Of a stretch of DNA of 64,000 nt, positions 1,809 through 13,164 are shown piece after piece. How positions within the stretch are numbered: position 1 is the stretch's first letter; each line of letters begins with the position of its first letter. This DNA comes from Zootoca vivipara (taxonomy: Eukaryota), in the NCBI RefSeq assembly GCF_963506605.1, contig NC_083283.1:83762001-83826000 (forward strand). Reading direction: 5' to 3'. The notes under the pieces are model-generated. The model was given only the letters and a program-made list of their open reading frames with translations, ran no database searches and was not told the DNA's origin. A program made the translations under genes and the position numbers.

Positions 1809-1891
1809 GACCTCTGAAGACTCTAAAAAGATTTTATAAACTCCAAAGAAGGTGAAGATATCTCTATGGGGTCAGCAAAAACAGAGGGCCC

Positions 1892-1960
1892 AAGGTGCTA
1901 CTGAAGGAATTTTTTTATTTTGCTTCGACTCAGACCAACACGGCTACCTACTTGCAACTA
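1892..1960. mobile_element. Penelope-like element fragment
   Basis: aaggtgctactgaaggaatttttt is almost the reverse complement of the start of 10131-10220. Family assignment from memory of squamate Penelope termini. Confidence 0.4.
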
Positions 1961-2343
1961 GAGGGCCCAATGTTAACATTATTTCTGTTTATTGATTCAC
2001 TTGCTGCCTTGATCATTTGAAAGCTTTTGGTCGCTGAGCAAACTAGCAAAGATGGGGAGGAGAATTCCCCTCCTCCCTTTGCCACTTCCAACAGAAAAGG
2101 TTGTTATCTCATTTGATTTTTAAAAGGTGTAATATACCAACTTGTCATTAGCTCAAAGCAGTTCCGTCTTAAATTAGCACATCATGACAAATTATTCACA
2201 GATTTCAATGTTGTAATTCCTATTTCTCTCATCACCTCCACCAAGTGAGAAAGAAGCCCACCCTGAAGCAGAAAAAGTCTTTCAGGACCCCATAGTAGAA
2301 GCAAACAACTAGTGTGAATTTCTAGTGCAACCATTTCAGTATA

Positions 2344-2407
2344 GAGACATGCTAAGAAGCTTACCCAGATATGAGACATGCTAAGAAGCTTACCCAGATA
2401 TGAGACA
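2344..2407. repeat. 29-bp perfect tandem duplication
   Basis: gagacatgctaagaagcttacccagatat x2 plus a partial third copy. Confidence 0.9.
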
Positions 2408-3019
2408 GATACCAAAGAGAACTCAGTTCCAAGACTGTCTAGTTCTACTCTTCAGTCATCTCTCAAAGTGCTTTGGCTGGCCAATATTCATATGCTCTAT
2501 TGACAATGTCAAACTATCATATAAAATACACTTCGGAAGCATACACAGCAGCATAAATATATTTATAAGGCAAGCACAGCACGTAGACTAGGTCTCAGTC
2601 TATATTGCCTCCTGCTTCTGGGCCTCCAAGCTGCTCCCACCCTCACCCCCCCCCCAAATTAAGTGCTTTTTTTTCCTGCCACAGATAGATGGGCTGGAAA
2701 GCTGTTACTTGAAGTTGGACTGGTCCATAGAGCTGATGTAGTGGTAGACTAGCAGAGTGAAATAAGGAAAAATTAAGTAAAGTCTCCTGAGACATACAGT
2801 GAATGATTTGTAAACGGAAGACTAATTCGGAGACAACTATTACAATATGCACTTGAGCTGAGAGATAGTGAAGTTAATCTGATGGAAAGTAAACTGAAAC
2901 ATGGAAAGAGCTTAAGCACAGCAGCAATTTTTAGAAATTATATCTCTCCTCCTGTTGGATTCAGTCTCCAGGTGTAACAGATTACTTTAAGAATGCTATT
3001 AGATCATTAAACACCCCAT

Positions 3020-3187
3020 AAAGGTAAAGGGACCCCTGACCATCAGGTCCAGTCGTGACCGACTCTGGGGTTGTGCGCTCATCTCACATTATTGGCTGAG
3101 GGAGCCAGAGTATAGCTTCCAGGTCATGTGGCCAGCATGACAAAGCCGCTTCTGGCGAACCAGAGCAGCACACGGAAACACCGTTTA
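3020..3187 (-). mobile_element. Sauria SINE, 5'-truncated
   Basis: (ACCTTT)n tail and body aligning with the copies at 9279, 36215, 52306 and 55481. Confidence 0.85.
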
Positions 3188-3589
3188 TCATGCAAAGCAC
3201 CATAGATTTAGGACCAGAGTTTTTCTTCTCCTAGATTAGGTACCTTCCCAGGTTGGCAAGCCCCATCTGCCCCTCACTTCCTTCTACAGCACTTGCAGAA
3301 ACCGCCTTATTGACCATTGGACCAACTATTGGTCTTGTCTGCTCAATCTGCCAGAGCCTGTCTTCACATGCAGGTGACGTCCCTAACTCACTGAGAGTTT
3401 GAGACCCATTGGCTACCCTCACCTGGTTTAGATGGCTAGTTGAAACCGCTTTCTGGGGTGTGCCCACTGTTGCATGCAGAAGGAACACGATTCATACAAA
3501 TCAACTGCAATTCCTTCATAGATACAAAGACACACACATACCTCAACAGCAAAATGAAGCATTGGCAGCAAAATAACATCGCCTCAGCC

Positions 3590-5260
3590 CATCAAAATCT
3601 GAAGGGAAAGGTAAGTTTTTACCTGAAAAGATGTTAACAAAGGACCAGGTGGGCCTCAACAAGGGCAGCGTCCCACCTCAGAAGAAGATCTAAGAGTGTA
3701 GGTGGCTTCCAGAAGCTACTGAGACTCTGAGTCCTAAAGAGCTTTATAGGTCAAAGCAACATTTTAAAACTTTATAGGTCAAAACCAGCATTTTTAATTG
3801 AGCTCTGAATCTAGAACAAATCTAGTTGTAACAGAATTGGTGTTATAGTATCTGTGAGGGAGAGTAGCTACAGACAGCCTCCTCCCATCTTAAGCACAAG
3901 CTCCTCTCCCAGCGCCAGTGGGAGCGGGGAGGGGGATGTCTCCAGCGGGGAATCAGGAAGTAGAGGGAATGGCTCAGGTAGGGTAGCAGAGCCACTGCTC
4001 CGCTTAGGAAAGGAAGTGGGAAGCAGGGAAAGCGCAACCAGAAGACCTCTCCCGCCAACCCCGGAATTGCGCAAAAAGCGACGGGGGCGGAGATTCAATG
4101 TTCCCAGGCTACTTTGTTGGAGGAAAACGCGGGAACCTCCATTCGGAGGTTCTGACCCAGACTGACAACATGTACATAGTACTGACTCTGCACTGTAAAT
4201 AGTTTGCACTGAATAAAAGTATGAAAAGGCAACGTCGTGAGGAGTCGTTACTCTAGAGTAGCCGCTACCGCGCCTGTGACAGTATCTATTCGCCTTGAAG
4301 CTGTCAACAGTTGGGCAGCCACATTCTTTCCTAATAGAAGCTTCCAAATCATTTTCAAAGGCAGCTCCATGTAGAGCACATTGCAATAGTTCAATCTTGT
4401 AGTTACCAGAGAACAGATTACTGCAGCCATATTACCCCTGCTCAGATAGGGTTGTATTTGAGTCACTGGCCTAAATTGGTGAAAGGCACTCCGTGCCACT
4501 AAGGCTAGCTGTGTGTCAAGTGATAAACATAGATCTAGGAGAACTACAAACTACAAACCCTCTGCTTCAAAGTGAGTGTGAACTCATCTAATGTAGGCAA
4601 TGCGCCACTCAGTCAGAGAAGCACACTGCCCCCAATACCATCTCAGTCTTATCTGGAGTAAGCTTCAGTTTATTTGTCCTCATCCAGTCCACTATCACGC
4701 ACAAGAACTGATTCAACACATCCGCTTCCCCATTTGCAGAAGGTGAAAAGGATAACTAGAGCTGCATCATCAGTGCACTCCAAAGCTCCATATGGCCTCA
4801 CTCAGAAGTTTCATGTAGATCTTAACATTGGGGGACAGACCCAACTCGTGTATGACCCTATGAACCCATGAAACCAAGCAATGCCCCACAAGAACCACCT
4901 TCTGGAGTCTGCCATTCAAGCAGAAGCAGAATAATTGGAATGCAATGCCCAAATATCCAGCTCAGGCAGTCGTCTCAGAATGATACCATGGCCAACAATA
5001 TTGAAAACCTCTTAATGATCAAGGAATATCCACACTTCCCCTTGTCTCTTTTATGACACACATCATTGTACAAGGCAACCAAGTTTCCCTATGAAACCCA
5101 GGTCTGAATCCCAACTGAATGGATCTGGAAAATATGGCTCCTCCAACAGTACCTGGATCTGGTTGGCAACCACCCTCTCAAGAACATCTCTCAAGAGACT
5201 GACTCCATCTTGAGTGGGGTATCTCACACAACTGTTTTTCACAGATTTTACAGAGGGCTT
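3590..5260 (-). mobile_element. Decayed L2-clade LINE ORF2 fragment, interrupted by a solo LTR
   Basis: The minus frame reads LVTTRLNYCNVLYMELPLK (L2 'SRLDYCN' motif) and LERVVANQIQ. Boundaries approximate. Confidence 0.7.
3853..4281 (+). mobile_element. Solo LTR (429 bp) with 5-bp TSD
   Basis: TGT...ACA termini, GTATC duplicated at 3848-3852 and 4282-4286, AATAAA at 4212, CpG-rich relative to the host L2. Confidence 0.85.
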
Positions 5261-5735
5261 GTTGTGCCTTGCAAGGCTGGTATGGTGCCCAGTCAATAAA
5301 TGTGTTTTAAAATTTACTTCTGGCCTGTGAACTACTGGGACCAGAGGGCTAGAGGAGGAAACCCAGCTCATAGAGCTTTCATCTTAACATCAGTGTTTTG
5401 TGGCTGGAGCAGCTCTTAGGATTATCATTGTACACTCTCAAACAGCAGCTTGTGTCCATACTACACGTTACAACAGCTGTGGGTAATGTAATTATAGCTA
5501 TTTCTTTGCTACAAAGAACCACTGGGAGCAATGGAGGCACCTCACTTAGCACAACTGGGGCACTGCCTACCCTAAATCTCCAAACCCACCAAAACTATAG
5601 CCCAGTTCCTCCTTTGTTCCTTACATTCCTATTAAATACACTTAGAGACCCTCTGGAATTGTTTTTGCCCATCTACTGTGCAGGCTAATCATCTCTGGGC
5701 CAGGCACAACAATCCCAATGGGACTTTAAAAGGTT

Positions 5736-6547
5736 TGTAAATACTATAATAAATTCCACTAGAAGTGCTTTCTGGAAGGTAGCAGATCCTTCTGAACCTC
5801 CTTCCTTTTACCACTTTCCCCAGTGGATTAAACTACCAACCAATCAGGATTCTCTCAGAAATGCACTGAAACCTCCACAGGGTTTGGGTAGGATTTTAAA
5901 TGACCTTCCCAACCCCATCAGTTGCTTGCATGCATTTCAATCTGAGCCAATCAGATGCATGAATTTGTGGTCCGCCTGTTACTCTCCTCCTCCTTTGTGT
6001 TGCTATTGTTTCACATTTGCAAGGCAGGAAACTAAAACAGGAAACACAATCTTGCCCCCCCCCCTTCTGTGGAAAGCAGCAATATATCTCTTTTGAGTTC
6101 ATGGGTCCGGATTTATTACTGGTATATAAATGTTAAAGGAGAGGAGTGGCAGTAAACTATTTCAAAATCCTATTTGCTGTCATGGGAAGGGAAGAGAAGG
6201 AAATATCAGACCACTCATAGGGAGGAGGGAGTAACCTGGCCTTTTTGTGTACTGCAAAAGTAGGAAGGGTGAGAGGATATTTCTACATTCCCAGAAGTGG
6301 AGAAGAGCTACCTTTTGTGGGGAAGCCAGTCTCTCCAGCTTTCTTAGGACCTCTAAATATCACTAGCATTTTCAACCTTTAGGTTGGATACTCTATACAT
6401 CATGCTGCTAACTTTGTACCGTAAATAAAATTGTCAATATAATACCTATTGTTTTCCTTGGGCCGTTTGAATATGCTTATTAGCATTCTTTCTCTCTGAC
6501 TCATGCAGCCTTCAGAATTAAAGGATCTGGAGATTTTATATGCAACA
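5736..6547 (+). mobile_element. Possible degenerate solo LTR
   Basis: CCAATCAG boxes (~5840, ~5947), TATATAAA (~6123) and AATAAA (~6424) in LTR order, ending TGCAACA. No TSD found and ends uncertain. Confidence 0.35.
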
Positions 6548-11950: not shown

Positions 11951-13164
11951 GTCACACTTCTTTTTTTATTTCCCAGTGATATTGAAGTTATGTTTACACT
12001 ATATTGTCATCTATTAAGCCTAACTGCAGGGGCAAGAGGGGTAAAACCCAGCTCCAGCCCTAGACTGTTCCACTCCCAAGGCCAGATGAGGGGCAGTGGC
12101 TGGTGGGGAGGGGGGCTCCCTTCCCCTGGAAGCAGCCAGGCTGCCTGCAGCTGCACCCATATCCTCATAAGGAGCAATATCTGTGAAACGCAATAAAAGG
12201 ATGTGTGCCTGTATTTTAACCTTATTAATGGATGCTATTTCTAAGGGGGTAATTCTGAGCAAAGAAACAAGGCATGCTTAACTATTACCCCATCTATCAC
12301 TTCTTCACTCTAAGTTGCCTTCCCTGCCAAATGTTCCCCTCTGAATGGAGTCCCCAAAGCATTTGCCATTGCAAACATACATTTGGAATTCTGCAAGAGA
12401 GAAAACAACAGTGGGGAACAGAAAAAGCAACTGGAGGGGGAAAGAGTTAAGCACCTTCACTTGCCTTATTTTAATCCTTTCTTAAAATACACCCCAAAAA
12501 GAACAAATCGTGTCTTAGATTGACACTAAATTATGAATTAATACAGACTTAAGCTTGTCAGTGGATGTGTGTTCATTCACAATAAGTCATTCATTCACCG
12601 AACAGCAGTTCTCCCTTGGCTATGACAGCTACAAAGGACATTAAAGGAGGACATTAAAACAGAGTGGTAATATCTGAAGTAAAGCTTTGAAGTCTACAAA
12701 TCTTTGAGCAGCATTTGCCTTGGAATCAACAGAACAAAAATGCACAGAAATGGATAAAAAAATTCTTAGGTGCCTTATTAGGTGGTTGCAGTTAATGACG
12801 GAAGAATGAGCTCAGCCATCTATCAGCTATGAAAAATAATGAATCGAGAGATGAATTAACAAATTTAAAAATTAAGCCCGCTATATAATTTCCCATTTCA
12901 GCAAAACAAAAAAAGTCCCACATTATCTAAGCAACACCATAAACAAGTATTGCAAATTTCACTTTGAAACAGAGTTGTACAAAGTAAATGCAAAATTGTT
13001 TAAAATTAATCATAATAACCCCCCAAAAGACACGCTTGGGGGGAACCAGGAATCTCATTCTCTAAGACAATTTCAATGGGAAAATTTACTTTTTATGTTG
13101 CTAGTGACTCCACATGATAACACATCAGAAAAATTAAAGAAAGCAAACTTTCATTACATCTCAC

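Follow-up and report, generated by a model that had tools for sequence, protein, structure and literature searches.

The open reading frame carried by a 429-bp solo long terminal repeat (LTR) in the 64,000-nucleotide stretch of lizard DNA analysed here (the window) is almost certainly the C-terminal end of an integrase—i.e., the tail of a Pol polyprotein whose last residues are coded by the element's own 3′ LTR. Taken together with a host-docking role for this tail, the reading becomes a joint claim that we hold with good, if lesser, confidence. The parent is a Tf1/sushi-type Gypsy chromovirus without env, an assignment made from the features of the element (the integrase tree of the recovered sequences is mostly unresolved). 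A preliminary description of the window had proposed an extra, accessory ORF in a parent resembling complex retroviruses. As it held, the frame starts within the parent's internal region, but there it is continuous with integrase and chromodomain (loci L033 and L191); because one frame is shared with the integrase core and chromodomain, we read it as the C-terminus of Pol and not as an accessory ORF.

The solo LTR occupies positions 3853–4281 of the forward strand, begins with TGTG, ends with GACA and is flanked on both sides by the target-site duplication (TSD) GTATC (3848–3852 and 4282–4286), so that the ends and duplications given in the preliminary description stand, as do its frame and motif positions. 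It shares 93–97% identity with the LTRs of two gag-pol elements, L032 and L190. The frame is open without a methionine for 103 codons (3854–4162) and closes at a TGA (4163–4165); frame continuity in relatives and the selection acting on it (below) identify this segment, 3854–4165, as the end of the pol (integrase) frame, stop codon included, which the solo copy keeps without the rest of the gene. It codes a Ser/Gly-rich linker (3893–3979) that differs in length by whole codons among aligned subfamilies, followed by a Pro-rich and basic patch (4040–4093), which comprises RRPLPPTP (4040–4063) and RKKRRGRR (4070–4093), and by RRFNVPRLLCWRK (4088–4126), the best-kept motif coded by the LTR. Past the stop, an AATAAA poly(A) signal (4212–4217) lies 18 nt after a conserved TGTAAATA (4194). 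LTR–LTR recombination would have produced the solo copy, with these codons retained and the start and upstream pol gone. The copy is inert coding debris that cannot make protein, in line with the earlier view that it is probably untranslated. Within the window, it lies antisense to and downstream of the last protocadherin frame, probably within the long intron of a clustered protocadherin variable-exon array (six frames of 813–843 codons at 13096–62537 on the minus strand, one of them checked by Pfam).

A search of the 1.44-Gb genome for LTR copies gave 2195 first-look candidates, from which 40 were scored and 30 retrieved; a 5-bp TSD was present at 19 of the 30 retrieved loci. The decayed element at L032 carries the window's LTR type (family A), while L033 represents a sister family (family B) with a 68% identical LTR. 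Among the recovered loci, none combined an intact element with an LTR >90% identical to the window's. The chromovirus group is young and abundant in this lizard, with 1376–1380-codon open frames in 49 of the 101 rows listed (counted by eye). Several arrangements accompany these copies. Head-to-tail tandem elements with common LTRs, spaced ~5.4 kb apart, occur at L033, L147/L148 and L071/L072, and the family-B array in L033 adjoins a family-A element of opposite orientation. A deletion derivative of 1379 bp (L003/L004; G000:C12:17468692-17470070), with two LTRs and TSD-like flanks of 5 bp, has a 521-bp interior in which just the start of gag, both FxGF units (see below) and the PPT are left. 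Nine of the 30 loci recovered with the internal sequence of family A fall on the small contig G000:C18 (9.3 Mb), far over its share; this contig is possibly a repeat-rich sex chromosome.

Full-length elements, the recovery of which the preliminary description had proposed together with a classification of pol, proved to be of the Gypsy class. In L191, an identical LTR pair and a TSD enclose gag and a 1380-codon pol frame (1821–5960) in the order protease, RT, RNase H, integrase and chromodomain, with the final 100 codons in the 3′ LTR and with no env or spare ORF in the element. Similarly, one 674-codon frame in L033 (5333–7354) runs through the integrase zinc finger, core, SH3-like domain and chromodomain to the stop in the LTR. 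The chromodomain scores above the cut-off of Pfam Chromo at the integrase C-terminus, and beyond it the integrase tail extends for ~220 residues and ends in the LTR. The gag-pol overlap contains GGGAAAC, known from PEG10 as a −1 slip site; a −1 frameshift there would yield Pol.

This read-through recurs across the group. Chromodomain and LTR stop lie in a single frame at 27 of 30 young family-B loci, at five of 30 older loci from the family-A search, among them L036 (LTR 89.5% identical to the window's), and in L046, L053 and L061. Among 42 distinct chromodomain–LTR junctions, 24 are in frame and 18 shifted, the latter mostly older copies with altered G runs ahead of the LTR. Frame breaks in near-identical young family-B copies also fall mostly in G runs, where reverse-transcription slippage and assembly homopolymer error are indistinguishable here. 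The many older copies shifted between chromodomain and LTR would suit a separate accessory or regulatory ORF lying over U3, with its own start or a spliced RNA, in the manner of nef, sag or bel2, as would selection on the frame and a methionine behind the family-B chromodomain (residue 461 of P0001). Yet that methionine is missing in L043, L049 and L061, no conserved methionine being seen; none of the 3,863 RNA reads on L191, a shallow sample, has a GT-AG joint; and in young copies integrase and tail are not parted by a stop. Together with the want of a spare ORF in L191, these observations make an accessory ORF very improbable. HIV nef, MMTV sag and foamy bel2 are separate ORFs of env-bearing retroviruses; the lizard frame is like them in that coding overlaps U3, and unlike them in that it is the end of pol.

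On its own, an open frame in one copy is weak evidence, because 103 or more consecutive codons free of stops arose in 5.4% (three frames) or 16% (six frames) of 2000 dinucleotide shuffles of the LTR. The caution of the preliminary description that GC-rich DNA can stay open by chance is thus apt for the single LTR and fails for the family: no stop interrupts the frame in 27 of 29 distinct ungapped family-A copies picked by DNA similarity, while the other two forward frames hold 2–5 stops in each of the 29. Changes common to several family-A copies divide 25:27 (non-synonymous:synonymous) and singletons 43:21, a contrast of borderline strength (Fisher p 0.058). The two neighbouring frames show 45:6 and 32:16 among shared changes, accompanied by shared stops. 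Among 10 of 12 subfamily representatives (two left out for damaged ends), the dN/dS of the LTR codons is 0.26, as against 1.16 and 1.52 in the shifted frames, the pairs compared being non-independent and the representatives picked for an open frame and LLCW. Since they were selected for both, frame length and LLCW conservation are partly circular, which the codon-position signal is not. Synonymous divergence is 0.88 and non-synonymous 0.23, in this frame only; by block, dN/dS is 0.09 in the Pro-basic segment and 0.36 in the linker. Gap length is divisible by three for 11 of the 16 gaps within coding sequence vs one of 22 after the stop. The LTR part of pol is under purifying selection, and the earlier proposal of a coding, selected frame was correct in this respect. 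A frame held open by chance, or by constraint on LTR DNA or RNA without protein function, could draw on the shuffling odds and on the overlap of the last codons with the self-primer described below, but the frame-specific divergence, the codon-sized indels and the retention of protein motifs in relatives without useful DNA similarity leave it hardly credible.

The motifs conserved in this segment are not those that first attracted notice. The preliminary description had singled out a class I SH3 ligand and a Tat-like basic motif, while allowing that the Tat likeness could be convergent. In 25 distinct tails, RxLPxxP occurs in four and RKKRR in five, whereas the loose pattern [RK]xxPxxP occurs in 16; the conserved features are a Pro-rich lead, then a basic patch whose length varies, and then P[RK]LLCW, the latter passed over earlier although it is the best-kept LTR motif. 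The exact SH3 and Tat likenesses are therefore best read as convergent, given their presence in these few tails, while the looser Pro-rich and basic composition stands. LL[CN]W following a basic patch also forms the end of three distant proteins (P0002, P0006 and P0009). Reading the LLCW and basic motif as PP1 RVxF, BET-ET, ALIX or AT-hook was rejected, the required residues being absent from P0002, P0006, P0009 or L147. No Pfam family matched the LTR peptide, a PDB single-sequence search with it returned designed repeat proteins only, tail homologue searches returned nothing beyond the two input proteins, and the ESM Atlas gave no usable match.

From its composition and by analogy with Ty1 integrase, the basic patch is a candidate nuclear-localisation or nucleic-acid-binding segment, and we lean towards a role in which it would bring the integration complex into the nucleus. 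The LTR-coded end of the tail may make a further host contact. The C-terminal half of Ty1 integrase is disordered and contains a targeting segment of 16 residues (PMC10050235), and this precedent makes short motifs in a disordered tail plausible. The lizard tail is likely a disordered host-docking arm; an AlphaFold model of chromodomain plus tail is uninformative here, its mean pLDDT being 49.7 with the chromodomain itself unfolded.

The most constrained part of the tail lies upstream of the LTR, hence outside the solo copy and beyond the reach of a description of the window. There, between chromodomain and LTR, stand one to three tandem acidic FxGF units, each laid out as a W...[IVLM]F segment, 8–9 acidic S/T-rich residues and FxGF with free x. 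Of 63 distinct units 42 were aligned, having been selected by an FxGF-containing pattern chosen with the known motif already in view; their linkers average 2.8 D/E and 3.5 S/T, and 37 of the 42 carry a CK2-type site. In six intact tails, dN/dS is 0.10–0.13 in the units vs 0.60 between them, and the FxGF pattern appears in ≤0.17% of shuffled tails. Ten distinct units have altered W spacing and retain FxGF. FxGF with free x is found in all families and in P0002, P0004-6, P0008-9 and P0114, among which P0004, P0005, P0008 and P0114 are Podarcis proteins with units.

These units resemble the TND-interacting motifs (TIMs; LEDGF IBD-binding motifs) of JPO2 (CDCA7L), MLL1, IWS1 and JIL-1 in their hydrophobic segment, acidic S/T linker and FxGF, and in tandem copies as in JPO2, as PMC9987994, bioRxiv 624023 and bioRxiv 2023.01.30.526367 describe them; they differ in standing within a mobile-element integrase and in linkers of mostly T/S instead of E. 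According to PMC9987994, a TIM consists of a helix, an acidic linker of 8–16 residues and FxGF, with two TIMs in JPO2; the lizard units have an [IVLM]F anchor. When the unit profile was run against 177,635 PDB sequences, two matches arose at E up to 10, the top one being 5YI9 (LEDGF-CDCA7L/JPO2 chain) at a non-significant E of 0.35 and spanning linker and FxGF only; PDB single-sequence searches gave zero matches for the FxGF region and zero for gag. A candidate partner is encoded by the host, whose genome has an HRP2 IBD; one of its HRP2 exons matches a protein of Zootoca vivipara at all 43 residues compared, and the host is thus a lacertid lizard, as the earlier inference of a squamate had it. 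Among titles and abstracts we found no FxGF or TIM motif in a retrotransposon integrase, nor any account of this lizard group (the family may be catalogued in Repbase, Dfam, subscription journals or supplements, which lay outside this scope); the texts containing both ‘FxGF’ and ‘retrotransposon’ concern JIL-1 and CDCA7 (bioRxiv 624023; bioRxiv 2023.01.30.526367).

We tentatively propose, at somewhat less than even confidence, that the units bind a TND protein, with LEDGF or HRP2 the likeliest partner, and that such docking would tether integration to H3K36me3 gene bodies, replacing the degenerate chromodomain. The W-x-x-I core of the units also fits the Atg8-family LIR pattern, and the strict [E/D]xExFxGF consensus of LEDGF ligands is present in two of 42 units only (33 of 42 if S/T may replace D/E). 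A Pol tail whose units contact another TND (IWS1, TFIIS, Elongin A, MED26 or PNUTS) or a non-TND partner, a reading that rivals the docking step only, is an appreciable but unlikely alternative. The helix and linker of TIMs serve many TNDs, as the same source reports (PMC9987994), which speaks for such a partner; FxGF is described there as both required for binding to LEDGF and HRP2 and specific to it, which, with its retention in all families and in the proteins listed above, speaks against it, and the 10 units with altered W spacing break the LIR pattern yet keep FxGF.

The proposed docking on LEDGF or HRP2 is set beside a decayed chromodomain. The lizard chromodomain lacks the third aromatic of the methyl-lysine cage (by HP1 alignment) and the first (by position), both of which the fish relatives P0019 and P0023 retain. 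In a survey of 119 proteins (112 parsed, 88 with a tail of at least 40 residues), the FxGF unit occurs in six of eight proteins without the third cage aromatic vs none of 80 with it, these 80 controls including cellular proteins. Because all six carriers are relatives, from one lizard lineage, they probably represent one event rather than six. The absence of the first and third aromatics in P0001, P0002, P0006 and P0008 is the group II pattern, which a 2013 account described as plant-only.

A different fate for the same tail would be translation within Pol followed by a protease cut, releasing a small protein, e.g., a transactivator that brings TND elongation factors to the LTR; the tail would then amount to an accessory protein. 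It is long, low in complexity and modular: besides acidic-aromatic units and a basic patch it may hold an NLS, and TIMs are reported to bind elongation factors (PMC9987994). Against release, C-terminal modules of chromoviruses are generally taken as integrase targeting domains, and the Ty1 C-terminal motif acts on integrase (PMC10050235). We regard a cut-off tail as improbable and keep to a tail that stays on integrase.

The same LTR codons run into signals of the element's RNA. An 11-nt self-primer (4141–4151) complements the primer-binding site behind 5′ LTRs; the complement was found in five of seven elements examined and in L033, both sides co-vary in L176, L180 and L191, and L192 with one mismatch gave no match. 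Self-priming marks the Tf1/sushi group (PMC6317226), and the lizard RNA would prime itself likewise. From the position of the self-primer, the U3/R border probably falls at 4141, the predicted RNA 5′ end, within the frame's last codons, so that the frame would span U3 and then 25 nt of R. A U5 segment (4251–4263) pairs with the leader in complete elements, the stem appearing in both MFE and centroid folds of L190; the primer helix is absent from the MFE fold of that element, and its R-U5-leader fold is no stabler than shuffles (z −0.37). RNA reads, a shallow sample of ~6% of three runs, cover L191 over its full length on both strands. Read starts at 5892–5896 are off the predicted 5′ end near 5939, and many U3 reads continue into unrelated flanks. 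RNA depth is highest over U3 (L191:5671-5854), mainly on the sense strand and with mixed upstream flanks, a pattern that suggests transcription of solo LTRs as part of host RNAs.

Set against known systems, the element is like Tf1/sushi elements (V-clade, Sushi-ichi, Amn) in its gag, its PR-RT-RH-IN order and C-terminal chromodomain, its 11-nt self-primer in place of a tRNA PBS, its 5-bp TSD and its AATAAA near the LTR end (PMC6317226; PMC3601003), and unlike them in a chromodomain without the cage aromatics, in its FxGF tail and in a pol stop within the LTR. Plant chromoviruses, too, can have the end of integrase encoded in the 3′ LTR, beyond the PPT; this is described for CRM group A with its CR motif (PMC3059260) and for Beetle7 and Bingo1-4, 7 (PMC3605345), where it is treated as a putative targeting domain. 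The pol-into-3′-LTR layout is a vertebrate case of this known kind. It differs from CRM, whose CR motif takes the place of a chromodomain and is associated with centromeres (PMC3059260), by keeping a chromodomain upstream, by its vertebrate host and by the absence of a Pfam match for the LTR peptide.

By analogy with lentiviral integrase–LEDGF and Ty1/Ty3 tethering, predicted docking of the lizard integrase on a host chromatin or transcription factor would bias insertion, although for Ty1 and Ty3 the docking site is the Pol III machinery. HIV uses LEDGF-type chromatin readers to direct its insertions into active genes; its integrase binds through folded domains and is not known to use FxGF. 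It is conceivable, though we rate it slightly below an even chance, that this vertebrate Gypsy lineage lost the chromodomain cage, gained tandem FxGF units and moved from heterochromatin to active gene bodies—a second, independent capture of LEDGF/HRP2, by TIM mimicry, joined to an LTR-coded docking and import module. If true, a retrotransposon would have reached the lentiviral tethering solution via a different route. The choice of insertion sites by vertebrate LTR retrotransposons is barely known, and the youth and abundance of this group make its insertion pattern mappable. The Pol tail also explains why solo LTRs by the thousand look coding in such genomes, where they can mislead gene annotation.
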